IMG/VR virus record: IMGVR_UViG_3300020048_000087
Coordinates: 1-64,000 of that record
Strand: one strand, 5' to 3'
Origin: a virus
Lineage: Duplodnaviria > Caudoviricetes
Length of the DNA: 64,000 nucleotides
The notes under the pieces are model-generated. The model saw only the letters and a program-made list of their open reading frames with translations. It ran no database searches and had not been told where the DNA came from. The position numbers and the translations under genes were made by a program. This document shows positions 1-34,770 of this stretch, one piece after another (position 1 is the first letter of the stretch; every line of letters begins with the position of its first letter).

Positions 1-617
1 CAACTGAAACCCCAACAAATACCCCAACAATAACCCCAACAAATACCATAACGCCAACTGAAACTCCGACTAATACCCCAACCGAAACCCCGACTAATAC
101 TCCAACAGAAACACCAACAAACACTCCAACAAACACACCAACAATAACACCTACCGAAACACCTACAAATACACCAACTAATACAATAACACCTACCGAA
201 ACTCCTACAAATACACCTACTGAAACCCCCACAAATACCCCAACCAACACTATAACGCCTACCGAAACTCCTACGAATACACCTACTGAAACTCCCACAA
301 ATACAATAACGCCTACCGAAACTCCTACGAATACACCCACAAATACTCCAACCAACACTATAACACCAACTGAGACCCCGACTAATACTCCGACAGAAAC
401 ACCGACAAATACACCAACCAACACTATAACCCCAACAAATAGCGTTACACCGACAACGTCAGTGACACCAACATACACACCATCACACACTCCAAGTATG
501 ACACCATCATACACCCCATCACCTACACCGACAACATTATCAGGAAATTTATTATTATTACAAGATGGTGGTTATATCATATTACAAGATGGGTCAGGAT
601 TCATAGAACTACAATAA
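1..617 (+). CDS. 5'-truncated Thr/Pro-rich ([10 protein letters not shown] repeat) mucin-like protein, probably virion-associated
   Basis: Not in the ORF track because it has no start codon in the window. Frame 3 is open from base 3 to TAA at 615-617 and reads ...[22 protein letters not shown]...[33 protein letters not shown]. Confidence 0.85.
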
Positions 618-624
618 AAGGCAT

Positions 625-654
625 AAAAAAAGGGATGACTAATCACCCCTTTTT
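625..654. terminator. Bidirectional intrinsic terminator between convergent genes
   Basis: A-tract, then GGGATGA-ctaa-TCACCCC (stem with one mismatch), then T-tract. Confidence 0.65.
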
Positions 655-671
655 ATATTATCTTATTTTTT

Positions 672-1271
672 TTACCAAATCTTTTCTTGAGACATAAAAC
701 CCAAAACGCAACAATAAGCATCTGTTTGGTCAAAATTTTCTTTTTTCAATGTATTATTTTTAGTATATAACCATTGAATTTGTGGTTCTCGTTTAGCAAC
801 GTTTTCCCATACTATCATTTTTTTATCAGCATCTTTTGGTAAACCACCAAATAACACGTGTTTTCCCTTATCATTAAGTTGAACAAGTTCAGGAAATGCG
901 TATTTTCTCGAATTATATGTTGAAATAAATTCAGGAACAATCCCCAACGTATCATATATTACTTTACAAACAAAGCTATTGAATCTCAACAATGTCTGAA
1001 CCGTTCTAATATTATTTGAATTTAATAATGGTTCCTCAATAATAACCTTAGTTATACCCATATCTTGATACTGAACTAATTTACTTTTAAAGATATCACT
1101 TTTAAGTAACAATTCTTTAATTTTATATTCTTCAACAGGTTTGGGTACAGGTGAAATATGGGTTAATTCTAATAATTCTCGACTTTGGATATCAAATAAT
1201 GCCCATCCGATAGTTTTTGTTGAGACATCTAAACCTAAAACTTTAGGACTTTCTTTTAACGTTTTTTTCAT
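672..1271 (-). CDS. ruvC: RuvC-like Holliday junction resolvase
   Basis: RNase H-fold motifs VLGLDVSTKTIGWA, IIEEP and DQTDAY. Start MKKTLK at 1271 is preferred over 1283. Confidence 0.75.
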   Translation of the reverse strand: MKKTLKESPKVLGLDVSTKTIGWALFDIQSRELLELTHISPVPKPVEEYKIKELLLKSDIFKSKLVQYQDMGITKVIIEEPLLNSNNIRTVQTLLRFNSFVCKVIYDTLGIVPEFISTYNSRKYAFPELVQLNDKGKHVLFGGLPKDADKKMIVWENVAKREPQIQWLYTKNNTLKKENFDQTDAYCCVLGFMSQEKIW

Positions 1272-1272
1272 A

Positions 1273-3705
1273 TTAAAAATCAAATTTAATCAAAAATTGC
1301 TGAATTCCCTGTCTTACCACAGGTGATTGTAGCTTAGATACAATCATAAGATTTTTATCTGAATCGTAAAGACCAATTTCAGTAAGATAAGGTTTTGCCG
1401 TTGTATTCCAAGTTGGGTTAGTACTCGTTAGGAATTCACTATTAGATAAATTAACTTTATACCTCATTTCATAGATAGTCGCTTGTATATCAGTCTCTAA
1501 TGACCCATAAAAATAATATTCATCACCAAAGTTGAGTTGTACTGACGTATTATCACCTTGAGTTGTTAATGGAATATAATTATTTAAATAATAAGTCGGA
1601 GCCAAATCATAAAGGTCTTTAGTTATCACAAACGTATGACCTGTCAACGCCGCTTCAGTAATATACCCATTAACAGTACTACCACTTATTTGGTCAGTCA
1701 TATCAATTATTTTCCAATCGTCAGAATTTGGTCGTAAACCTGTGGTCACTTTTTGACAAATAATTTCAACTTTTTCAGCAAAAAATCCTTGTTTAAAAGT
1801 ATCATTATATATGGCTAAACAAGATAAATTACCCCCAAATCTAACCCCAACATTTTCCGAATCAGAAGGATTACATAAATTATCAGGACCCATAATTTGA
1901 CTATAATAATTACAATGTAATGATTCAGTGAAAGCACTTGAGTTACTAAAACGATAAGTAACAAACATAGTCTCATTTGACCCTGTTAAAACCCCTAGAG
2001 TACTACCAATTGTGTTACAAGTGTTTGGTGTTGATAAAAACAATTTAGTTGCCGGTAACGTCCAATTACGATTTGATTTGTACGACATTGCAGCTATTAT
2101 CTCTTCATCATCAATCACTATCATTCTATCATCTGGAAAAACTTTACCGATTCTACTTGGTAAACTTGGTAAACCATTAACAATGGTTGGATTAGTATCC
2201 CATAAATTATAGTAACGTAACCCAGGTGAATTCATATCAAGATTTTTCTTAGATTGCATATAATGAGGTGTAAATAAACCTAAACCATCAAAATTTGGTG
2301 GGTCCACCCAAAATGTTTCACCATAACAACATTCAGGGTTTTTATGCCACATTAACCAAGGGATATGTAATTTAAAGTTTCTTGCTTGTCCTGTCGCATC
2401 ATAAGGTATTGACGGGTCATAAGGTTCTAACGCAAATTTCTCACCATAAAATAAATCAATTGTCTGATTAGTATAATGGATTATTGCGATTGATTTTTGT
2501 TCTTTAGGTTCAACTTTAATCTTTTCATCAAATGAATTATAATAATAAGTATCAGTCGTTTCCGCAGTTAACACATTATTCACATAGAATGTTTGACCAC
2601 TATTTGACATATACCCCAAATATTCTTTAGCCCCTAAATAATTAACTGAACCGAATTGTGTATAGTCTTTATCCGATGAAATCATACCCGCTAGATTCTC
2701 CGACCAAGGAATATTCATATTCCAAATCTTAACGTTAAATTCATCAACACCACAAACAGATTCGAAATTAATTATATCATCAGCATAATGGTCTAACGGC
2801 GTTACACTATCATATAAATTAGTCATCTTTTTTGGATACACAATAACTCGAGCATAACACCCTGTGAACGTAATATTAGAATAATCAGGTGTTGGTCTAT
2901 CTAAAGTCACTACATTATTACAAATATCAACAATTCGATACGTTAAAACAGGATAACAAGAGGTCATTGACATAGTACACTCAGTACTAATTATTTTTGG
3001 TTTAGGTCCAGGACAATAACTCGATGATGGTGTTGGTGTCGGTGATGGTGTTGCACAAGGAGCTCCAGGACTTGGTGTTGAACTTGGCGTTGGCGTGGGT
3101 GTCGAATGTTGACTTGATGTTGGTGTCGGTGTCGGTAAATTAATACACCCACAATTATTACCACCCAAATTATCATAATAAATTGTTATAATATCCCCAA
3201 TTGATGGTTGAGAAAACTGAATTGGGTTACAAGTTAAATCAACTAAACGAATTGTTGTACCTCCTGTAATACTTGACATATTAACAACGTAATTAGAATT
3301 AACCACATAATCATTTCCCGTCAACGCACTCCAACTAGTTGGTAAAACATTTGTATCCCCACTAAAAAACCCTCTAATTGCTGCAGTATTATAGATAGGA
3401 CTAACAACCGAATCCATAAAAGGAATACCATAAGTGTTACCACCTGTACCATCAACATAAAATGGATATTTAACATTTTGTTTATTAGACTCAGGAGTAC
3501 CACTTGAATTTTGAGCATTAAACCCCGGTTCTAATATCATTGTATTAGTCTGAACATATGTTGTCGGTAATGTATTATATAAAACCTCACTATCTCCAAC
3601 TTGGAAATAACTAATATTAAACTTACCCTGTGATAATTTTTGTCTTGCGGCATCAGTAAACCTCGTATTCACTAACCCTGATGTATTTTTTAAAATAAAC
3701 CCCAT
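1273..3705 (-). CDS. Virion structural protein (baseplate/tail-collar-like) with internal Pro/Thr/Ser linker
   Basis: C-terminal YLTEIGLYDSDKNLMIVSKL resembles tail-collar/baseplate motifs. Contains a TPTPTSS...TPSPTPTP tract and lies in the structural operon. Confidence 0.55.
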   Translation of the reverse strand: MGFILKNTSGLVNTRFTDAARQKLSQGKFNISYFQVGDSEVLYNTLPTTYVQTNTMILEPGFNAQNSSGTPESNKQNVKYPFYVDGTGGNTYGIPFMDSVVSPIYNTAAIRGFFSGDTNVLPTSWSALTGNDYVVNSNYVVNMSSITGGTTIRLVDLTCNPIQFSQPSIGDIITIYYDNLGGNNCGCINLPTPTPTSSQHSTPTPTPSSTPSPGAPCATPSPTPTPSSSYCPGPKPKIISTECTMSMTSCYPVLTYRIVDICNNVVTLDRPTPDYSNITFTGCYARVIVYPKKMTNLYDSVTPLDHYADDIINFESVCGVDEFNVKIWNMNIPWSENLAGMISSDKDYTQFGSVNYLGAKEYLGYMSNSGQTFYVNNVLTAETTDTYYYNSFDEKIKVEPKEQKSIAIIHYTNQTIDLFYGEKFALEPYDPSIPYDATGQARNFKLHIPWLMWHKNPECCYGETFWVDPPNFDGLGLFTPHYMQSKKNLDMNSPGLRYYNLWDTNPTIVNGLPSLPSRIGKVFPDDRMIVIDDEEIIAAMSYKSNRNWTLPATKLFLSTPNTCNTIGSTLGVLTGSNETMFVTYRFSNSSAFTESLHCNYYSQIMGPDNLCNPSDSENVGVRFGGNLSCLAIYNDTFKQGFFAEKVEIICQKVTTGLRPNSDDWKIIDMTDQISGSTVNGYITEAALTGHTFVITKDLYDLAPTYYLNNYIPLTTQGDNTSVQLNFGDEYYFYGSLETDIQATIYEMRYKVNLSNSEFLTSTNPTWNTTAKPYLTEIGLYDSDKNLMIVSKLQSPVVRQGIQQFLIKFDF

Positions 3706-3733
3706 TTTATATTATTTTTTTCTTTTTTTTATT

Positions 3734-4861
3734 TTAAGACCTATTATAGAAATAGTTCCAATAATCTGTTTCTGTTACCGTACAACAATTACAACCACTT
3801 AAAGTTTGGTTTGACATCTGACCTGAAGGTGGTCTACTAAAATACCCCTTACAACAATTTGTTGTACTTGTACCCGGATAACCAATACTTAATGGACCCA
3901 ATTCACTATTCGATAACTCGTATAAAGATTTAGTACAATCTAACACATAATCACTTATCGCCTCAATCGTATAGTTATCACCCGTTTTAAACTTTATCGA
4001 AGGATATTTGTTAGAATAATTTGTAGTATATTGTAGAGACCCTTGACAACCAGCAGTTGCGTTAACAACGTATTGAAATTCGTTAATAGAAATAGTCGGT
4101 ATTATAGTTAAAGTATTTTTAACGACATTTGTCGTAAATGTCGAAGTTGCTGAAGTTTTATTAGGTGTTCTTAGAAATTCCGCATCAAGAGTCAAATCAA
4201 ACGTCACCTCAACACCCGGAGGTAATGTTGGTATTACCTCAATAGCGTAGACATATTTAATTGAGGTACTAGTTAAATTAGTTGTTGAAATCACTTTTAG
4301 ATTAGTGGTATAATTAATTTTCGGTGTCGCAGCAGGTAGCACAATAGTATTAGTTACTATAGTCCCTGCGGAATCTTTTGTTTTAACGGTAAAAATATTA
4401 TCACCACATAAATCGGTTTTAATCGGACCACCACCATACGTAATACCATTATCAAACGAATATTGATATGGTGGAACACCACCCGTTGCGGTAATATTAA
4501 TTGACCCATTACAAACACAATCAGGACTATTGTAATCAGTCTTAGCAACTAAAACATCAATTGGTGGACATTCACCTTGAGTCGCCACCGAACTATAATT
4601 AGCCCCTAAAACGGTCCAATTACCATTAATTGGCGGATAACTATTGTTAGTATTAATCACTTGAACGGTAGTAAAACTACTTCCCGATAATTTCCAAGCG
4701 TTTAGAGTTGTATCCCAAATAATTTTAGTAGTACCATCATCCGATAACCAAGAATTTTTACTATTAAAGAACCCATCAGGGTTAAAATGAAGATTAAAAG
4801 GTTTTGAGAATAAACCTGAACTTGTTACTCCCCAACTAAAAATTGGTTGATTATTTTCCAT
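3734..4861 (-). CDS. SprB-like repeat, Cys-rich putative tail fibre/adhesin protein
   Basis: NGSINITATGGVPPYQYSFDNG matches the SprB repeat pattern; Cys clusters near the C-terminus. Confidence 0.55.
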   Translation of the reverse strand: MENNQPIFSWGVTSSGLFSKPFNLHFNPDGFFNSKNSWLSDDGTTKIIWDTTLNAWKLSGSSFTTVQVINTNNSYPPINGNWTVLGANYSSVATQGECPPIDVLVAKTDYNSPDCVCNGSINITATGGVPPYQYSFDNGITYGGGPIKTDLCGDNIFTVKTKDSAGTIVTNTIVLPAATPKINYTTNLKVISTTNLTSTSIKYVYAIEVIPTLPPGVEVTFDLTLDAEFLRTPNKTSATSTFTTNVVKNTLTIIPTISINEFQYVVNATAGCQGSLQYTTNYSNKYPSIKFKTGDNYTIEAISDYVLDCTKSLYELSNSELGPLSIGYPGTSTTNCCKGYFSRPPSGQMSNQTLSGCNCCTVTETDYWNYFYNRS

Positions 4862-4869
4862 ATTTTATA

Positions 4870-5256
4870 TTATTGTTCTCGAATTTGATAACCACCATTG
4901 TTGGTTATAGGTTTAAACGTTAGACAGAAATCATAAAGAGGTAACGTTGTCGTTGTAGTTGTTGTAGTTGTCGTAGTTGTTGTTGGTTGTCCCAAATTAC
5001 AAGTACTTTGAATTGTATAATCACCATATGAATCAGTAACCGTCGCAACATAAGAACCTGAACTTAAATTGTTTATTGATTGACTAATACTACCATTATT
5101 CCAAGTAATTTTATAAGGTGGTGAACCACCTGAGATTATTAAACTTGCAACCCCATCGGAACCCCCATAACTCGACGGATTTGTAGAATTACAAGTCACA
5201 GACATCGGGAAAATTGTTATTACCCCACATTCATTTCTTTCTGTTGGTGTTGCCAT
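4870..5256 (-). CDS. Small SprB-repeat protein with poly-Thr linker
   Basis: DGVASLIISGGSPPYKITWNNG...NLSSGSYVATVTDS SprB repeat, followed by PTTTTTTTTTTTT. Confidence 0.65.
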   Translation of the reverse strand: MATPTERNECGVITIFPMSVTCNSTNPSSYGGSDGVASLIISGGSPPYKITWNNGSISQSINNLSSGSYVATVTDSYGDYTIQSTCNLGQPTTTTTTTTTTTTTLPLYDFCLTFKPITNNGGYQIREQ

Positions 5257-5268
5257 ATAATGTTTTTA

Positions 5269-6258
5269 CTATAAATAACCTTTAGTCTCGTTTTTTAACA
5301 TAGATTTCATAACTTCAATGTATTTTTTTGTTGAGCTATTCTCATCTATGTAATCAAAAAATCCATCATCAATCTTTAATAAGTCCAAAGGATTTAAACT
5401 TATATAATCACCTTTATAAAATTTACTATCTCTTAATTCACCTGTTACACCAGCCATATGAAGTATCACTTTTTTATTATATTGGTCTATAGTATCTGTA
5501 GCCCAAGAAAAACTAAGAGAATCAGTTACTTTAGTTTCTTTCTTTAAGAACCATAAATTCCATAAAACCGCCCACATATCTGAAGTCCATATTTGTAAAC
5601 CATTCTGTATCGGATATGCCTTATGAAACATAATTAACATTTGATAAAGATTTTCACTATCTTTATAAACTTTATCCCAAAATGTATAATCAGTATTTTT
5701 AATCAAATACTGAGCACCACCTGAATTCTTTTGATTTTTTTCAATTGTTTCAATATCAACACCAACAATGCCACACATCGAAGTCAATAGTTTATCTTTT
5801 GGTAATATCTGATGTTCAACATCATACCTATCACTAGACTCTTTAAGGTAGTTATAACCAATGTATGAGGTCGTATCAGATAAATAACATACATCGTTAT
5901 CAATCATAGAATTAAAGTCAGGTAACTCTCTAAAAATGATATCAGAATCGTGGTAAAAATAACACTTACCAAATTGGGGATTTTCTTTTAACCATTTAGA
6001 TAATATTAATGGTCGTAAACTTGGAATATATTCTTTATTTTTCCTATCATCAAGATAATGGTATACATTAACCCCATAAGACTCCAATTCCAACGATTTT
6101 ATTGAAGGTTTATCTCCATCAACAATAACAAACAAAACGTGTATTTGATTTGGGCTAACACCTTTATCAATAAAATTATGAACATATATTTTTGTTTGCC
6201 AATGAAAATAAGGAACATCGGGTTGTGCGGATACAAATACTAAATCATTAAAATTCAT
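5269..6258 (-). CDS. GT-A glycosyltransferase resembling plant HPAT/SERGT protein O-glycosyltransferases (GT95/GT96)
   Basis: DxD motif (YHDSDIIF) preceded by LRPLILSKWL and followed by GGAQYLI and WTSDMWAVLW. These parallel the HPAT motifs NRPWAFVQWL, EPDHI, GNSPVI and WVLEMYAY as recalled from the family. Confidence 0.6.
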   Translation of the reverse strand: MNFNDLVFVSAQPDVPYFHWQTKIYVHNFIDKGVSPNQIHVLFVIVDGDKPSIKSLELESYGVNVYHYLDDRKNKEYIPSLRPLILSKWLKENPQFGKCYFYHDSDIIFRELPDFNSMIDNDVCYLSDTTSYIGYNYLKESSDRYDVEHQILPKDKLLTSMCGIVGVDIETIEKNQKNSGGAQYLIKNTDYTFWDKVYKDSENLYQMLIMFHKAYPIQNGLQIWTSDMWAVLWNLWFLKKETKVTDSLSFSWATDTIDQYNKKVILHMAGVTGELRDSKFYKGDYISLNPLDLLKIDDGFFDYIDENSSTKKYIEVMKSMLKNETKGYL

Positions 6259-6330
6259 CTTCTTTTTAATTAAAAATATTAAAGAAGTTAATTTTATAAA
6301 TGATTATATTTACTTAAATCATCAAAATGA

Positions 6331-8223
6331 TTAAATACCCGCACCCGTCCAAGAGGCCGGGTTAATCGGTAATGTTATACAATCAGCCGGTTGTGCCGAA
6401 CTATTAGCAGGATTAGTAGGTATTTGAGTCGTACTACCAACTAAAGTTAATTTTGTCGTATTTGTTGGGTTAATTCGATAAACATTATTTTCACCACCTG
6501 TTTTATTATCAATCGCATAAACTCCACCACCTTCAACGAATAATGCCGCAAAATAATTTGCTGACCCTAAAAGTGTATCGAAGTCAACAGTACCCGTAGA
6601 ATAATCAACTTGAGTTAAATAAAAATTACTACTTGTTGTATAGTTTAGATAGATAACTTTATCATTAGTTGTGTAAAGAGCGTTACCCTGTACTTTTCTA
6701 TTTGATGGTGTAGCCCATAAATCGGTTTGACCTGCGGGGTTTGTTGTAATATCTATAGAAATAAAATTAGAAGGGTAACTACCATAGAAACCAATTAATT
6801 CAGTATTACTTTTAGCGAAGGACCCATCAAAAGCGTTACCCGCACCATTTTTAGAAATTGAGAAAGTTCTTGATAATGTAACACTATATGGGTTTTCCAC
6901 TAAATTATATTCATTAACATATACGGTTGACACAGAACTTTGATATTCTAACCATAGTTTATTATGACTTCTACCCATTATACGATTGAAAATTAAAGAT
7001 GGTGTTAATATTGACTTAGTAGTGTTAGTACTAACTTTATATGTGAATAATTCATAAGTACCAGCCCCTTTGTTAAATAAAAACATAGGGTCACAAGCCG
7101 CTAAACCAACAAATGGTGTTATCGGTGAACTAGATGTTGGCGTCATTGTCATTGTTGGTGTTGGTGTTGGTGACGAACTAATCGGCCCACTAGATGTTGG
7201 TGTCATCGTCATTGTTGGTGTTGGTGTTGGTGTTGGTGTTGGTGTTATGGATGGTATATTAACACAAACAAAAGGTATTATAGATGGAGACCCACCATAA
7301 GTTACTTTAATATTATCATATGTATTTGTCCCTATACCTATAACTGTTAAAACACCTACCGAAAAATCAAGTGGTTGTGTTGTTATTGTAAAATAACCAA
7401 GTGGTAAACCACCAACGGTGAAAGCATTTAAATCTGTTTCTAATTGAGGGTATAATGACGATTTCCATAAATCCCCAAATGGGTATTCAATACCATTTAT
7501 TGTAATAGAAAAAGTACTAGGACCATAATCAGCAAAGTCGGTGGAAACGGTGCAAGAGTATGTTCCTATATTAGTAGGTGTTGGTGTTGGTGTTGGTGAC
7601 GAACTAATCGGTGAACTAGATGTTGGCGTTGGCGTTATCGCGGGTGAACTAGATGTGGGTGTCATCGTCATTGTTGGTGTTGGTGTTGGTGTTAACCCTA
7701 TTGGGTAAAATTCGGTAAATGTGGTTTCTTCAAATGTTTCACCCATAATTAACACCATAATATTCTTAATGTCACACATAAATTTAACCATAGAATCCTG
7801 ATAAGCAATAACATTTGACATATTAAAACTACCATCACCATAATCAACAACATAGTCAAAATCAATATCATCACCCCCACCTATAGTTGGGAGTCTCATT
7901 GATTGATATTCTAAACCCGTTTTTTTATCAATACCGTCACAAAACAACATATTCCAAAATATGTCAAATTTTGTGTAAAAATCAATGAAAGTCCCTTGCC
8001 AAAAATCAGTATATATTTTTTCCTGTATTATTGAGTCACAAGTCCCATCAACATCACAAGTTGTCACACTCTTAATATATTGGTTTAAAGCTTTAACATA
8101 CGCGTTACGTGTCTCTCTAGCCGTTGACGCCATATCCTCAAAATTGACACAATTAGCCTCAATAGTATCAACACCAATCATATTACTCCCTAAGTAATCA
8201 CATATATCGAAAAAAAATGCCAT
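6331..8223 (-). CDS. Putative fibre/receptor-binding protein with two mucin-like Thr-Pro/Ser-Pro linkers
   Basis: Two (TP)n/TPTSSSP tracts separate globular domains; the C-terminal region is beta-rich; lies in the structural operon. Confidence 0.55.
   Translation of the reverse strand: MAFFFDICDYLGSNMIGVDTIEANCVNFEDMASTARETRNAYVKALNQYIKSVTTCDVDGTCDSIIQEKIYTDFWQGTFIDFYTKFDIFWNMLFCDGIDKKTGLEYQSMRLPTIGGGDDIDFDYVVDYGDGSFNMSNVIAYQDSMVKFMCDIKNIMVLIMGETFEETTFTEFYPIGLTPTPTPTMTMTPTSSSPAITPTPTSSSPISSSPTPTPTPTNIGTYSCTVSTDFADYGPSTFSITINGIEYPFGDLWKSSLYPQLETDLNAFTVGGLPLGYFTITTQPLDFSVGVLTVIGIGTNTYDNIKVTYGGSPSIIPFVCVNIPSITPTPTPTPTPTMTMTPTSSGPISSSPTPTPTMTMTPTSSSPITPFVGLAACDPMFLFNKGAGTYELFTYKVSTNTTKSILTPSLIFNRIMGRSHNKLWLEYQSSVSTVYVNEYNLVENPYSVTLSRTFSISKNGAGNAFDGSFAKSNTELIGFYGSYPSNFISIDITTNPAGQTDLWATPSNRKVQGNALYTTNDKVIYLNYTTSSNFYLTQVDYSTGTVDFDTLLGSANYFAALFVEGGGVYAIDNKTGGENNVYRINPTNTTKLTLVGSTTQIPTNPANSSAQPADCITLPINPASWTGAGI
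7123..7246. repeat. Tandem GGTGTT-based repeat with duplicated GAACTAGATGTTGG modules (linker 2)
   Basis: Arrays of ggtgtt hexamers and recurring actagatgttgg / gacgaactaatcgg modules; near-copy at 7577-7692. Confidence 0.8.
7577..7692. repeat. Second copy of the Thr-Pro/Ser-Pro linker repeat (linker 1)
   Basis: Shares ggtgacgaactaatcgg, gaactagatgt and gtcatcgtcattgttggtgttggtgttgg modules with 7123-7246. Confidence 0.8.
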
Positions 8224-8238
8224 AATTTTTTATTTTAA

Positions 8239-11133
8239 TTAAGTTTTATATTTATATATTTGATAAAATGGTATATAAAAGTTCGACCAAGTAAACGGTC
8301 TACTAGCCAATCCCAATTGGTTTAAAGCTTTCAAATAAGCATTCCGTTTTTCCCTTTGACTTGACGCACAATCTTCTTGGTCAGGATAACCAACAATTGG
8401 GGTATTATCGTCCGTCCAATTATTACTATTAGGGTTCCAATAATACCACATATCTTCATCAACGACCATACACCGTTGTCCAAACTCACCTGTCAATGGT
8501 AAATCACCATATGATTGTACTTCAGTTAAGAAAACAATGTCAAAATCATATTGAGGACCTACAAGTCCTTCACTTTCATAATATCTTTTACAACTACACC
8601 CTTGTAAGACATTCATTTGAAGATATCCAACATTATTAGGACCTTGATAAAATGAATTTAAAGGATTATCCATTGATGGTGGGAGAACTATCGGTATAGA
8701 TTCCGCTAGCGTTATTTGTCCTGTAACCATTGCTAGAAAATATTCATTCGAATATTTTACATAAGAATCCCTCTGTTGTCTAAATTCAACCCCCAAATCT
8801 TCGGCCCCTCCGGCAGAACAATCTATTTGATTTGCCAACTGAACACATCTTGTTGGTATAATATTAACATTATCTAAGAAATCAAACCCAGTAAAAGGTA
8901 TTTTTATATCGTAAATAACTTTATCAGGTGTTTCACAATATTCTGCGGTTATCTCACATTCCGTTGGTACGTATTCTTCACAACACACACACGAAACATC
9001 ATAATGTATTACCATATAAACAGAAATATCGGCATCCAATAATGAAACTTCAGATTCACAATCAGTGCTTATTGTTATTTTATTCGTTGAATTGTTTATA
9101 ACAACCCCACCAATCCCATCAAACGATAATAGTAAATTTCTAATAGTCGTACCCCATAACGAATCACTTGGGTATTCATTCAATGTTTCACCAACAAAAA
9201 AGGATGCCGTTGTTGCCGAAACACCCTTAACACTAACACAAGCATCAAAAACCGCATTATTTAAAATACAATTTTTCTCATTAAGCGTTAAATCATAAAA
9301 CCCTTCAGTTAACATTTGATGAGGTCCTTTTTTAATTAGTTCACCTGTATTTACAAAATTCTCCGAACTAAGATTATAAACTTCATAAGCCACAGAACAA
9401 GTCATACCTAAAAGTATTTTTGTTTTTTGATTAACACAACCATTATTATCTGTGACTTTAACTGTGTAAGTACCCGCACCTAATCCCGTGACTAACATTC
9501 CTGTTTGTGAACCAACATTAGGACTCCATTCATATGTGAAAGGCGGTTGACCACTAGTGATAAATAATTCAATCCGTCCATCATTACCATTGACAGGGTT
9601 TTGTGAGTTAATCGTAAAATCAACACCAACCGAATCATTAATAAAAATCGTAGTACTTTGTTTACAAAGAACACTAGTATCCGTAACATCTAAAACATAA
9701 CTACCATTATCTAAATTTTGGAAAGTATGTCCTGTTGTCGTAATCTGTACTGATTGCCCACCCACCTGAAGTAAAAAAGGACCTGTACCACCACTTATTT
9801 TAACATTAACCGCCCCATTATTTAAACCACAAGTTGTTCCTGTAAGAGTCGGTGTAATATTAAATAACACCTCATTAATAATTTCATAAGTTCTAATATA
9901 TTCACAACCACCGGCATCTAAAATACTCAAAGTATAAACTCCTGACGATAACCCAACAAACTCATAACTATTTAATGTTGTTGTTACACTATTATTTGAA
10001 CCATTCGGTGATGTTAATTTAAATGTATATGGTGGTGAACCTGAAGTTACTAAAGGGCTAATAGAACCACTACTATTATTACATTTTGAATTTGTTTGAT
10101 TTACAGAAACAACGGTGAATGTTAATGGTGTAATTAATGATGTATCCCCATTAAAATTACATAACCCGGAATCCTGAACATAATAACTAAAAACACCGGA
10201 AGGTAAGTTATCGAACACAAAATAATTCGCAAACTGAACCGACACAGTACCATTTGAACCTGAATAATAGTATGGTGCAGTACCACCTGAAACAAATAAC
10301 GTTAGAGTACCATCACTTGCAAAACAAGAGGGTTGAGTTACCAACACTCCGGCCTGACCAACAGTCGGTACTTTAGAAACCATTGCGGTTTTATTAACAA
10401 CACAACCTGAACTATCACTAACAGTTACATTATACCCTCCACTAGTTAAATTTTCAATATTATCCGTAATTTCACCATTACTCCATAAATAACTATATGG
10501 TGGCGACCCTGTTAAACCTGTAATAAATAGTTTACCTGAATTAACATTACAACCAGCATCGTTAACAATATAAATACCAAAATCTAATTGGGTTGATTCT
10601 TTTACAATTACCGAATTGGTAATACCTGAACAACCACCACCATCATTTACCACAACATAGTAAGTTCCAGGTGATAAATCCGTAAACACTGCACCCGGAG
10701 GGGATATTGTGTTTGTTGTCGTACCTGAAGAAATATAACCTAACGTTGTATGATATAAATAAAATTTATTACTACCATAGTCATATTGAGTTGTCGCAGT
10801 TAATGAACCATTATTTAAATCACAAACCGTGTTTATTACGTTACTAATAGAAGTACATACCCCACTAGAAATGAAAACAGACACGGGAGCGACATTATTT
10901 ACAGGGTCCGAACAACTATCAATAATATTGAAACTATAAGTTCCCGATGTTAAATCAGTTACTTCATAATTTGTCACACCCTCACCTAAAGGTATAATAT
11001 CCGTGATTGGGGTTAACCATTGGATGGTATAACCAGGGGCTGAACCTTCAATTGTTAACCCAAAGGAACCAACACCTAAATTACTACAATCACCCGTTAT
11101 TCCCGTTAAAGTATAATTTAAAACACAACTCAT
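8239..11133 (-). CDS. Multi-SprB-repeat adhesin-like virion protein
   Basis: About 6-7 repeats of the pattern G.i.l.vtGGt.PY.Y.WSNG...L..G.Y.v.VtD..GC. Confidence 0.7.
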   Translation of the reverse strand: MSCVLNYTLTGITGDCSNLGVGSFGLTIEGSAPGYTIQWLTPITDIIPLGEGVTNYEVTDLTSGTYSFNIIDSCSDPVNNVAPVSVFISSGVCTSISNVINTVCDLNNGSLTATTQYDYGSNKFYLYHTTLGYISSGTTTNTISPPGAVFTDLSPGTYYVVVNDGGGCSGITNSVIVKESTQLDFGIYIVNDAGCNVNSGKLFITGLTGSPPYSYLWSNGEITDNIENLTSGGYNVTVSDSSGCVVNKTAMVSKVPTVGQAGVLVTQPSCFASDGTLTLFVSGGTAPYYYSGSNGTVSVQFANYFVFDNLPSGVFSYYVQDSGLCNFNGDTSLITPLTFTVVSVNQTNSKCNNSSGSISPLVTSGSPPYTFKLTSPNGSNNSVTTTLNSYEFVGLSSGVYTLSILDAGGCEYIRTYEIINEVLFNITPTLTGTTCGLNNGAVNVKISGGTGPFLLQVGGQSVQITTTGHTFQNLDNGSYVLDVTDTSVLCKQSTTIFINDSVGVDFTINSQNPVNGNDGRIELFITSGQPPFTYEWSPNVGSQTGMLVTGLGAGTYTVKVTDNNGCVNQKTKILLGMTCSVAYEVYNLSSENFVNTGELIKKGPHQMLTEGFYDLTLNEKNCILNNAVFDACVSVKGVSATTASFFVGETLNEYPSDSLWGTTIRNLLLSFDGIGGVVINNSTNKITISTDCESEVSLLDADISVYMVIHYDVSCVCCEEYVPTECEITAEYCETPDKVIYDIKIPFTGFDFLDNVNIIPTRCVQLANQIDCSAGGAEDLGVEFRQQRDSYVKYSNEYFLAMVTGQITLAESIPIVLPPSMDNPLNSFYQGPNNVGYLQMNVLQGCSCKRYYESEGLVGPQYDFDIVFLTEVQSYGDLPLTGEFGQRCMVVDEDMWYYWNPNSNNWTDDNTPIVGYPDQEDCASSQREKRNAYLKALNQLGLASRPFTWSNFYIPFYQIYKYKT

Positions 11134-33089: not shown

Positions 33090-34091
33090 TCAATTCTCGA
33101 ATTCTTCTTCTTCCGTTGGTACAAAAACTTCACTAAGTTTAAAATCTCCATCACCACCTAATTTTTTATTCCAATATTCAGAAAATTCTTTTTTATATTT
33201 CTCAATCGCCGTTTTATCATCTTTGATATAACCTTGAGGGACCGCCAATATTTTACCATCTTTATATGATAAACCATTAACGTGGTTCTTCAATATTGAG
33301 ATTTTAGTTCTCGTCGCGTAAACAACCGTTCTATTATTTTTAGTTGCGGTAATGTGATTAATTCCCGCTTTCTTTTGATTACCAAATAAAAACACTAATG
33401 ATGATGCTAGCCATATCGCTTCACCCCCTTTAGCCTTAATCTCAGGTTGCCCAAAAGGATTGTCAGGTAATTCCACCCAAGGTTGATTAATTATAATCAT
33501 AGTGGCATAAAATGGAACATCTTCTTTTTTAGTTTTAGATATTCTCGCCGAAATACCCATACCTATTTTGTCGGCAAATGTTGCCGCATTATGTTGTTTA
33601 CCACCTTTACCATCATAAGTCATCTTACAAGGTATAGAACCCACAGAATCCCATAAAAATTGAACGTTATAAGGTATTTCACCTTTCTCTTGAGCATCTA
33701 AAATATCATTAACGAATTGTGTTGCTTGTTCAATGTAATCAAAACTATCATTGAAGATGAAATGTCCATCCCACTCACCGTCAGCGTTTTGAGTCGCCTC
33801 TAACCCTAATTCAACCGCGTGTTCCCAATTCCATTTTCTTTCAGTAATAATAAATACAGGTAAATCCCCTTGTTTTTGAGCGTCAGCCGCAGCCAAAATC
33901 ATAGCAGTTGTTTTAGACGAATTTGAGTGACCTAAAAACATATTAATATGTCCTTTACTTGGGCCAGGTAACCCACACGCTTCGGTAAACGCTTCACCAC
34001 AATTGTAAAAACTCTCAGGTTTGTATTTAGTTTTAGTAGAAAACTTTCCTTTAATACTATCTAAATTAATTTCTTTTTTCTTTAAAGCCAT
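33090..34091 (-). CDS. recA: RecA/UvsX-like recombinase
   Basis: P-loop GHSNSSKT, FLWDSVGS (Walker B), IIINQ and KGGEAIWLASS motifs. Confidence 0.85.
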   Translation of the reverse strand: MALKKKEINLDSIKGKFSTKTKYKPESFYNCGEAFTEACGLPGPSKGHINMFLGHSNSSKTTAMILAAADAQKQGDLPVFIITERKWNWEHAVELGLEATQNADGEWDGHFIFNDSFDYIEQATQFVNDILDAQEKGEIPYNVQFLWDSVGSIPCKMTYDGKGGKQHNAATFADKIGMGISARISKTKKEDVPFYATMIIINQPWVELPDNPFGQPEIKAKGGEAIWLASSLVFLFGNQKKAGINHITATKNNRTVVYATRTKISILKNHVNGLSYKDGKILAVPQGYIKDDKTAIEKYKKEFSEYWNKKLGGDGDFKLSEVFVPTEEEEFEN

Positions 34092-34770
34092 AATATTCTT
34101 TTATTTGTTCATAATAATTATCGTCAAATTTTGGGTCTAAATCAATAATCCCTTCATTTTTTTCTTTTAATTTGTCAGCCCATTCATATTGTCGTATAAT
34201 CGGTATATCATCCATCCCCGAAATATGATAAGTTGACATACCCCACCTATAAATCATTGTTGGGGTATCTATAGATTCGTGTACACGTCCATTAAACTTG
34301 AAAGTAATGTCTAAGTCCTCACCAAAATTCTTATCGGGGAAAGTTATTCTATTTAAATAATCTTTAGAATAAACATTACCATTATTAACACTATTTTTAA
34401 AATCTATAAAGTTATTATGTTCAAAATAAAAATGACTCGACCTTCTATATATTTCATATCCAGGATTTTCATTTATTTGTTTCTCGACATTTTTTAAACC
34501 ATTTAAACTCAATAAATCATCGTCATCTAAACGATAAACATAATCATATTTACATTCTTTAAACCCCCATTCTATTTTTTTTGAAATGTTTTCAAAACGT
34601 TGGTTTAAATTTATAATTTTTACTTTTGGGTGATTAAATCTGTATGTAACATTTGGTTCATCATTAATAATAACCATTTCACTCTCATCAAAATTTTGTA
34701 ATAAAAAAGAATGAATTGATTCTTCTAATAATCTTTTCCTACCGTACGTTAAGGTTAACACTGAAATCAT
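34066..34770 (-). CDS. GT2-family glycosyltransferase
   Basis: ISVLTLTYGRKRLLEESIHSFLLQ, IINDE and RLDDDD are GT-A/GT2 motifs. Confidence 0.8.
   Translation of the reverse strand: MISVLTLTYGRKRLLEESIHSFLLQNFDESEMVIINDEPNVTYRFNHPKVKIINLNQRFENISKKIEWGFKECKYDYVYRLDDDDLLSLNGLKNVEKQINENPGYEIYRRSSHFYFEHNNFIDFKNSVNNGNVYSKDYLNRITFPDKNFGEDLDITFKFNGRVHESIDTPTMIYRWGMSTYHISGMDDIPIIRQYEWADKLKEKNEGIIDLDPKFDDNYYEQIKEYYGFKEKRN

Follow-up and report, generated by a model that had tools for sequence, protein, structure and literature searches.

Virion glycosylation in mycobacteriophages (Che8 and others) is reportedly the subject of a 2023 study by Freeman et al. in Cell Host Microbe 31:1216. Enzymes of the HPAT/SGT1 type glycosylate hydroxyl amino acids in low-complexity Pro/Ser-rich proteins. 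HPAT carries a type II membrane anchor, uses hydroxyproline as the acceptor and UDP-L-arabinofuranose as the donor. The polypeptide alpha-GlcNAc-transferases of GT60 include Gnt1 from Dictyostelium and Toxoplasma as well as the mucin initiator of Trypanosoma cruzi. The classical roles of phage glycosyltransferases are the glucosylation of DNA and the conversion of serotypes (PMC12619734). For mycobacteriophages, three sources connect one or more phage glycosyltransferases, together with methyltransferase genes, with glycans that sit at the C-terminal ends of capsid and tail-tube subunits (PMC12619734, PMC13313380, PMC12894461).

We analysed positions 1 to 64,000 of the record IMGVR_UViG_3300020048_000087, an uncultured jumbo phage; this entire 64-kb stretch is referred to as the window. 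The original prediction had proposed a virion O-glycosylation system at 1-8223, and the following features of this region and its neighbour are relevant here.

3..617, plus strand: C-terminal 204 aa of a start-truncated protein, open at the 5′ end, with a TPTNTPTE-type repeat of ~182 aa; candidate acceptor.
1273..3705, minus strand: 810-aa protein with a TPTPTSS/TPSP linker at aa 190-234; candidate acceptor.
3734..4861, minus strand: 375-aa SprB-repeat protein (Pfam SprB, E 7.6e-7); module member lacking a strict tract.
4870..5256, minus strand: 128-aa protein with an SprB-type repeat, followed by a 13-Thr run and a 24-aa C-terminus; candidate acceptor.
5269..6258, minus strand: predicted 329-aa soluble GT-A glycosyltransferase (GT) of phrog_4417; proposed Thr/Ser O-glycosyltransferase and remote HPAT (GT95) relative.
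6331..8223, minus strand: 630-aa fibre-like protein with TPTPT/TPTSSSP linkers at aa 177-221 and 322-372; candidate acceptor.
8239..11133, minus strand: 964-aa SprB protein (Pfam SprB, E 1.7e-22, 5 stretches); fibre- or adhesin-like neighbour.

The open reading frames, the Thr/Pro/Ser tracts and the DSD motif all lie where they had been predicted. The Thr tract described as PT12 at 4870-5256 contains a run of 13 Thr, and the repeat assigned to 1-617 with about 170 aa spans ~182 aa in an ORF at 3-617. The GC skew of -0.35 at 3..617, where the plus strand is C-rich, fits the ACN and CCN codons of this repeat. We defined a strict tract as at least 11 of 12 residues being T, S or P, including at least 5 T or S. 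By this rule, the four predicted tract-bearing proteins within ~8 kb around the glycosyltransferase are the only ones to qualify out of 42 genes called across the 64 kb. They all flank the enzyme within the first 8.2 kb and account for four of the six other genes of 1-8223 (hypergeometric C(6,4)/C(41,4), ~1.5e-4).

The genes of the GT module are co-directional with intergenic gaps of 8-72 nt and are therefore read as one late operon that follows genes for baseplate wedge proteins of the gp6 and gp25 type. The gene at 4870..5256 follows the glycosyltransferase gene immediately, a homologue of it adjoins the GT in the relative G001, and the GT module of G001, also tract-bearing, encodes a homologue of the 1273..3705 protein with 61% identity. 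Immediately upstream of the enzyme, the 6331..8223 gene encodes a protein whose two linkers divide three domains; we found no homologue of it in G001, and its residues 29-48 share 15 of 20 positions with the C-terminal end of the 964-aa SprB protein. The latter protein has a single weak tract, SSGTTTNTISPP. Searches of Pfam, PHROG and PDB gave neither a recognisable fold nor a virion annotation for the tract proteins (including PDB for the 1273..3705 protein, and PDB and Pfam for the 6331..8223 protein), and we infer that they are tail proteins from their position and the SprB repeats. No transmembrane segment or signal peptide was detected in the enzymes or the tract proteins. It is conceivable that the Thr/Pro linkers serve simply as flexible spacers.

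The 5269..6258 protein was assigned to phrog_4417 (E 8e-69), a family of more than 2000 relatives without functional annotation, and had no match in Pfam, NCBIfam and PDB sequence searches. Its AlphaFold2 model has a pLDDT of 97.2. The fold search with this model returned 116 chains with a Z-score of at least 8, the top 20 being nearly all GT-A transferases, and Foldseek matched GT-A enzymes at E ~2e-6. The nearest solved folds are glycogenin, Skp1 Gat1 (6mw8, Z 14.2), WbbM, UGGT, LgtC, LARGE1 and GlyE, an enzyme of serine-rich-repeat protein glycosylation, with Z-scores of about 13-15 (14-15 for the first five). For those of the GT8/GT24 type, the Z-scores are 13.2-14.9 over 216-245 aligned residues at an rmsd of 3.5-4.3 and a sequence identity of 7-12%. 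As modelled, the protein is thus by the fold criterion a nucleotide-sugar glycosyltransferase of the GT-A fold, in agreement with the DxD glycosyltransferase of the original prediction. The DSD residues D104 and D106 and the downstream H267 are invariant across 68 family members.

The retaining GT-A enzymes of GT8 and GT24 (glycogenin, Gat1, LgtC, UGGT, LARGE1, GlyE) are the closest folds and resemble the phage family in the conserved DxD and downstream His; the GT8 likeness is confined to the fold level. No Pfam glycosyltransferase model such as PF01501 (CAZy GT8) was matched by any of the 68 members, among the 25 families listed of the 28 that they matched at E ≤1. Chlorovirus PBCV-1 A064R offers another comparison, as a virus-encoded cytoplasmic GT-A enzyme that decorates the capsid protein of its own virus. 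However, its fold is less close (2p6w, Z 11.2), the host of the virus is eukaryotic, and the glycan is attached to the capsid protein through another linkage.

The motifs of the enzyme (YIPSLRPLILSKWL, HDSDIIF, SGGAQYLI and WTSDMWAVLW) had been likened to those of GT95 and GT96. The GT95 likeness stood at the level of profiles: hhalign aligned the phrog_4417 family with four bacterial PF23452 proteins at a probability of 92.8% and E 4.1e-7 over 254 columns, pairing the named motifs, whereas a control alignment with GT60 reached a probability of only 2.3%. The HPAT side of this alignment consists of just four sequences, all bacterial and related to one another, whose PF23452 scores do not exceed 26-35 bits. 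HPAT appears in 20 of the 30 named ESM-Atlas cluster neighbours of the protein, including the nearest ones. Membership in PF23452 did not hold, since the window protein has no match at E ≤1 (cut-off 23.9 bits), and it therefore represents a sister family rather than a GT95 member. Only one of 68 relatives matched PF23452, at E 0.09, and none of the six phage genomes searched contained a match. The matches of the fold search included no GT95 or GT96 chain, and GT8 and GT24 enzymes were the best solved folds. The GT95 resemblance is, at the sequence level, real but remote. Judging from profile comparisons, this large, unannotated and mostly phage-borne family is most likely a remote sister of the HPAT (GT95) peptide O-glycosyltransferases of plants and bacteria.

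The remote homology to HPAT is nearly full-length, with a common motif order of Y..WQ, Y.P..RP, DxD, W..DM and H. Whereas plant HPAT is membrane-anchored, the phage enzyme is predicted to be soluble: it has no hydrophobic segment (KD19 maximum 1.0). The acceptors probably differ as well. The original prediction expected a prolyl hydroxylase elsewhere in the genome if hydroxyproline were the acceptor; the tract prolines would then be hydroxylated first and glycosylated by the enzyme afterwards, as HPAT does on extensins. The remote homology and the Pro-rich tracts of the window fit such chemistry, but we consider it very improbable. We found no 2OG-Fe(II) oxygenases of PF13640 or PF03171 in the record, from which ~70% of the genome is missing, or in three relatives that are 93-100% complete, and the tags of many carriers contain no proline at all, e.g., runs of T9-T16. 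Thr is therefore the likely acceptor instead of hydroxyproline.

The predicted co-occurrence with Thr-rich proteins proved to extend well beyond this phage. Homologues adjoin poly-Thr-tailed virion proteins in phages of Enterococcus, Lactococcus, Lactobacillus, Staphylococcus, Clostridium, Arcanobacterium and Chryseobacterium. In 12 of the 14 cultured-phage lineages sampled, the homologue has a poly-Thr-tailed capsid, tail-tube, portal or decoration protein in its vicinity, and the tails of small phages are pure poly-Thr. No further tracts were found in the stretches scanned, which comprised the whole of iLp84 and bIL285 and, of the 55.6-kb 1706 genome, the initial 50 kb. The bIL285 tail-tube protein ends in a T9 tail, which is absent from four 50-56% identical homologues of phages without the GT. 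Among related IMG/VR loci, which are phylogenetically related and therefore not independent, a tract gene lies at most two genes away in 69 of 80 and beyond seven genes in none. A relative with a complete genome of 318 kb has 10 tract genes, 6 of which are no more than 12 kb away from the two GTs, whereas only 9% of its genes overall are that close (permutation p 2e-4). A tract gene also lies immediately upstream of 18 of 29 single-domain homologues in bacterial genomes (Fisher p 7e-5). The two most divergent phage homologues, from LP65 and SAC12B, are without a tract up to 9 kb away.

The enzyme might instead modify host cell-wall or surface glycans, for superinfection exclusion or receptor masking, or phage DNA, with the tracts serving as unglycosylated linkers. 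The classical roles of phage glycosyltransferases mentioned in PMC12619734, the presence of LgtC (LOS) and WbbM (O-antigen) among the top folds and 50 multi-domain chromosomal homologues (Chitinophaga, Pedobacter, Sphingobacterium) showing no enrichment of tract neighbours are in line with this idea. Yet it leaves unexplained both the pairing with Thr-rich tags across phages of Bacillota, Actinomycetota and Bacteroidota and the loss of the tag in tail-tube homologues from GT-less phages. In siphophages, moreover, the gene resides inside the head/tail morphogenesis operon, with the capsid or tail-tube gene on one side and chaperone genes on the other, which is neither a moron nor an early-gene position, and no gene for hydroxymethyl-base synthesis is annotated in the small temperate carriers. 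We regard a non-virion target as improbable.

The place of the enzyme family beside Thr-tagged capsid or tail proteins in many unrelated phages makes it probable, as far as gene neighbourhoods can tell, that such phages coat their own particles with sugars. The Thr tags of the Firmicutes carriers occupy the same C-termini of capsid and tail-tube proteins as the mycobacteriophage glycans, and the glycosyltransferase and methyltransferase genes have counterparts in our record, although the glycans there are measured and those here predicted. In contrast to those C-terminal sites, the window features internal Thr/Pro linkers of fibre-like proteins. The hosts, Bacteroidota and Bacillota here, are also different, and none of the 77 phage records with the phrog_4417-type family is a Mycobacterium phage, so that the enzyme family differs from the mycobacteriophage one. 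We found no description of Thr-tag glycosylation by a phrog_4417-type enzyme in the literature searched.

The system is larger than originally described. Outside the window, the record has a second locus (68-82 kb) with FkbM-type methyltransferases, an HtrL_YibB-like domain and the following gene.

L094:14403-15650: 415-aa GT60-type polypeptide GlcNAc-transferase (PF11397, 248.6 bits against a curated cut-off of 21 bits, E 1.6e-73).

This protein also matches the glycosyltransferase family phrog_24687 (E 1e-166). Its gene is conserved in four of four relatives and flanked by sugar-type methyltransferases and Thr/Pro-rich proteins, with a Thr/Pro-repeat protein two genes off. It shares PF11397 with Gnt1 and the T. 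cruzi enzyme but is bacteriophage-encoded, and no Skp1-type hydroxylase is present. Elsewhere, phrog_4417-type, HPAT-like domains are fused to PF11397 (P0142, P0152, P0153), to O-FucT and, weakly (24.3 bits, below the Pfam cut-off of 26.3), to a methyltransferase domain.

These observations raise the question of which transferase would act first. The GT60-type enzyme might place GlcNAc on Thr and the 5269..6258 enzyme merely extend it, by analogy with the Skp1 pathway, in which Gat1/glycogenin-like enzymes act after Gnt1. The nearest solved folds are mostly glycan-extending rather than glycan-initiating enzymes, and the best of them include Gat1, XXYLT1, LARGE1, GlyE and UGGT, which all add to sugars; the fusions to PF11397 and the presence of this gene in the same record and all four relatives point in the same direction. 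We nevertheless consider this order unlikely. The poly-Thr-tagged bIL285 and iLp84, as well as phiFL1A and 1706 over the stretches examined, have no second annotated glycosyltransferase, the homology points to enzymes of the HPAT type, which glycosylate hydroxyl groups of the peptide directly, and the two transferase genes are ~70 kb apart in the record.

We therefore favour, with good though not full confidence, a soluble, metal-dependent (DxD...His) GT-A enzyme that would O-glycosylate Thr tracts of the phage's own virion-type proteins. The best explanation draws on the fold, the invariant catalytic motifs, the remote homology, the gene order and the co-occurrence with Thr tags across lineages. 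As far as sequence analysis reaches, fold, HPAT homology and co-occurrence support the proposal that the phage glycosylates its own fibre stalks. Late in infection, the enzyme would draw on a host nucleotide sugar in the host cytoplasm and place sugars on Thr, perhaps also Ser, hydroxyls in the disordered Thr/Pro/Ser tracts of the fibre- and baseplate-like proteins encoded on both sides of it. In the jumbo phage it probably cooperates with the GT60/methyltransferase locus, and together they would turn the linkers of virion appendages into glycosylated, mucin-like structures. The phage may benefit through linkers that are stiff or withstand proteases, through a shield of glycans or through adhesion.

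More generally, we lean slightly towards the view that poly-Thr or Thr/Pro tracts are portable "glyco-tags" for one soluble enzyme of the HPAT superfamily, acting in the bacterial cytoplasm and related by descent to the extensin-glycosylating enzymes of plants. If so, the tags would reveal a widespread and as yet unreported way in which phages of Bacillota, Bacteroidota and Actinomycetota glycosylate their virions, to which jumbo phages would add a protist-type GT60 initiator and sugar methyltransferases, resulting in mucin-like fibres.

Every open reading frame, tract and motif named in the original prediction could be located in the window, and the candidate Thr/Ser O-glycosyltransferase is surrounded by the following genes:

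3-617 (+): TP-repeat gene
672-1283 (-): 203 aa, weakly similar to RuvC-like Holliday junction resolvase (phrog_159, E 5.6e-5); its first 11 nt are shared with the end of the 810-aa gene
1273-3705: 810-aa tract protein
3734-4861: 375-aa SprB protein
4870-5256: 128-aa tract protein
5269-6258 (-): candidate enzyme, 329 aa
6331-8223: 630-aa tract protein, beginning with MAFFFDICDY
8239-11133: 964-aa SprB protein

Applying a strict tract rule, we counted four genes with Thr/Ser/Pro tracts in the window, and all four are found among the six genes flanking the enzyme (chance by hypergeometric count, ~1.5e-4). The genes make up a single co-directional block, spaced 8-72 nt apart, and are located downstream of the baseplate genes. 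The 128-aa protein, previously described as containing a PT12 stretch, indeed carries a Thr run, but it is made up of 13 consecutive Thr residues. The 810-aa and 630-aa tract proteins had no match in a PDB sequence search. The C-terminus of the 964-aa SprB protein (aa 920-939) and the N-terminal region of the 630-aa protein (aa 29-48) share the 20-residue motif ED.AS..RE.RNAY.KALNQ, identical at 15 positions (E 4e-6).

The IMG/VR record is linear, 81.9 kb long and 28% complete according to CheckV, and the window makes up its first 64 kb. Encoded in the window are baseplate wedge proteins resembling gp6 and gp25, a baseplate hub and a tail sheath of 1280 aa, as well as ribonucleotide reductase, a DnaB-like helicase and a UvsX-like recombinase. 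Based on the tail and baseplate genes and on collinear homologues of 43 of the 51 genes (mostly 55-87% identity) in G001, a 318-kb, 100%-complete relative, the phage is classified as a jumbo myovirus. In the fibre-like genes, the SprB repeats together with a Por_Secre_tail match too weak for Pfam's cut-off point to Bacteroidota as the probable host. The record is broken at both ends within TP-repeat genes (3-617 (+) and 80425-81912 (-)), so assembly probably halted at these repeats. Compared with G001 (227044-234412), the module at window 672-6258, comprising the enzyme, the T13 protein, the SprB protein, the 810-aa protein and the RuvC-like gene, is inverted relative to the G001 baseplate operon, and the 630-aa protein is absent from the G001 counterpart. 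A 234-aa GT2-family glycosyltransferase (34066-34770 (-); PF00535, E 1.3e-11), which has no homologue in G001, sits among the replication genes, with the UvsX-like recombinase on one side and SSB on the other.

Sequence searches of Pfam, NCBIfam and PDB gave no match for the 329-aa enzyme; the sole near-match, to the GNPTAB/Stealth region, was insignificant (E 0.2) and was rejected. The enzyme belongs to phrog_4417, a family without an assigned function (E 8e-69), and its relatives number >2000 in 90% clusters and 838 among 50% representatives. None of the relatives listed bears a functional name or Pfam domain, except for the JGI label "TusA-related sulfurtransferase", and those in BFVD are labelled "uncharacterized". 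As AlphaFold2 prediction from the single sequence was unusable (pLDDT 42), we replaced it by a model based on a 68-sequence alignment (pLDDT 97.2). This model has a GT-A fold, a result with which Foldseek agrees; glycogenin is the best match in the structural search (Z 14.9), followed by the Skp1 alpha-galactosyltransferase Gat1 (14.2), WbbM (14.2), UGGT (14.1), LgtC (14.0), LARGE1 (13.4) and GlyE (13.2). D104, D106 and H267 are invariant in the alignment, which fits the expected DxD...His metal site. No hydrophobic segment was found in the enzyme.

The likeness to the plant hydroxyproline O-arabinosyltransferases (HPAT, GT95) that had been proposed from motif parallels is visible only when profiles are compared with each other. 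The Pfam HPAT HMM matched neither the window enzyme nor any other protein of the record and five carrier phage genomes. Nevertheless, HPAT-bearing clusters account for 20 of the 30 nearest named neighbours of the enzyme in the ESM Atlas, and four bacterial genomes with multi-domain relatives of the enzyme also contain a genuine PF23452 gene, scoring 26-35 bits, at the same locus; the distance is ~4.5 kb in L101, L103 and L112, and in L100 the two genes are adjacent. Aligning the family profile with these four PF23452 proteins by hhalign resulted in a probability of 92.8% (E 4.1e-7) over 254 columns, in which the Y..WQ, Y.P..RP...W, DxD, W..DM and His motifs are aligned. In a control comparison with a second GT-A family, the GT60-type enzymes of the phage, the same profile gave a probability of 2.3% over 16 columns. 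As judged from these profiles, the enzyme family is thus remotely related to HPAT (GT95) as a sister family, and by Pfam's criterion it lies outside HPAT; the aligned motifs are the parallels drawn in the original prediction. The ~1000-aa multi-domain relatives in L100-L106, L112 and L179-L182, which are Acidimicrobiia, Actinomycetota and Myxococcales MAGs, adjoin Thr/Ala/Pro-repeat proteins, and these loci are possibly a cellular version of the system.

A tract gene occurs no more than two genes from the enzyme in 69 of 80 related IMG/VR loci, and no locus has one more than seven genes away; as these loci are kin, the count shows conservation of the module and not independent co-occurrence. 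In G001, 6 of 10 tract genes lie within 12 kb of the two glycosyltransferase genes, compared with 9% of all genes (permutation p 2e-4). We used cultured carrier phages as independent lineages:

Thr-rich tags in cultured carrier phages
Enterococcus phiFL1A: both the major head and the major tail protein, at the C-terminus; the tail gene is directly followed by the enzyme gene
Enterococcus 4995_1: capsid C-terminus
Enterococcus Planchet: tail-tube C-terminus
Lactococcus 1706: T9-T10 ending the capsid-protease fusion and the tail tube
Lactococcus bIL285: T9 ending the tail tube
Lactobacillus iLp84 and Bacchae, Staphylococcus PMBT8: small Thr-rich proteins immediately upstream
Clostridium phiCTP1: portal and a 132-aa head protein
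Arcanobacterium TPWB06: tail tube
Chryseobacterium MA9V-3: two upstream proteins

No further such tracts occur in the whole genomes of iLp84 and bIL285 or in the first 50 kb of the 55.6-kb genome of 1706. The anticipated co-occurrence of the transferase with tract-rich genes is seen in most of the cultured lineages sampled; the most divergent carriers, LP65 and SAC12B, have no tract within 9 kb. Phage bIL285 provides a natural experiment: its tail-tube protein ends in KTTTTTTTTTRHD, and four homologues (50-56% identical) from phages without an enzyme match end just past the conserved VY motif, lacking the Thr run. In bacterial genomes, a tract gene is immediately upstream of 18 of the 29 single-domain homologues (Fisher p 7e-5); no tract enrichment was found for 50 multi-domain homologues, mostly from Chitinophaga, Pedobacter and Sphingobacterium. 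The chromosomal two-domain homologues of 500-590 aa (L109-L110 and L116-L176, from these genera and Mucilaginibacter) lack annotation in their C-terminal half and are not flanked by Thr-tract genes, and their role may differ.

The best-supported reading, which we consider probable, is that the enzyme would act in the cytoplasm and O-glycosylate Thr-rich tracts on virion proteins of the phage itself. A target other than virion proteins is quite improbable, as it would leave unexplained both the pairing with tags and the site of the enzyme gene within morphogenesis operons, and modification of DNA or the host surface ranks low. Plant-like chemistry on hydroxyproline is very improbable: the prolyl 4-hydroxylase expected in that case was not borne out, with no PF13640 or PF03171 oxygenase in the record (28% complete) or in 93-100% complete relatives. 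Many of the Thr-rich tags contain no proline, and Thr is the likely acceptor.

The record carries a second locus outside the window:

68042-68674 (L094:6042-6674): Thr/Pro-rich repeat protein
68732-71182: FkbM methyltransferase fused to an HtrL_YibB domain, 816 aa
71191-72954 and 73834-75525: two methyltransferase-domain proteins
76403-77650 (-) (L094:14403-15650): PF11397 (GT60) polypeptide GlcNAc-transferase homologue, 415 aa, 248.6 bits
77712-80396: Laminin_G_3 structural protein
80425-81912 (L094:18425-19912): Thr/Pro-rich repeat protein

Four related jumbo phage genomes each have a single copy of the GT60-type gene; 14 control prokaryote genomes have none. An alternative is that the phrog_4417 enzyme only extends glycans after the GT60 enzyme has acted; this agrees with the fold neighbours but is unlikely, because small phages such as bIL285 and iLp84 have the enzyme as their sole annotated transferase. 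Record 68732-75525 (L094:6732-13525) is a row of sugar-tailoring-type genes, encoding the FkbM-HtrL_YibB fusion, proteins of the Methyltransf_24 (587 aa) and FkbM (563 aa) types and two unknowns; as most of them have no homologue in G001, the row is a variable island. In other metagenomic proteins, HPAT-like domains are fused to PF11397 and O-FucT and, more weakly, to a methyltransferase domain (24.3 bits, under Pfam's 26.3-bit cut-off), which ties these activities together. The combination of glycosyltransferase and methyltransferase has been used by other authors as a signature of virion glycosylation.

As far as it is described in the papers citing it (PMC12619734, PMC13313380, PMC12894461), mycobacteriophage virion glycosylation is the known system closest to the phrog_4417 module; the enzyme family is absent from Mycobacterium phages in a 50,697-record collection. 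In the literature found, virion glycosylation has been demonstrated only in some actinobacteriophages, and our search retrieved neither a description of the enzyme family nor a link between HPAT and phages. If the proposed function is true, glycosylated capsids, tails and fibres would be common in dairy, gut, clinical (Enterococcus, Staphylococcus) and freshwater phages, with a bearing on immune recognition of therapeutic phages, virion stability and adsorption, as well as on the reading of cryo-EM densities and proteomics. One enzyme and a short tag would constitute a minimal cytoplasmic O-glycosylation system tractable in cultured phages, and the plant extensin glycosyltransferases would be connected to a large bacterial and phage family.
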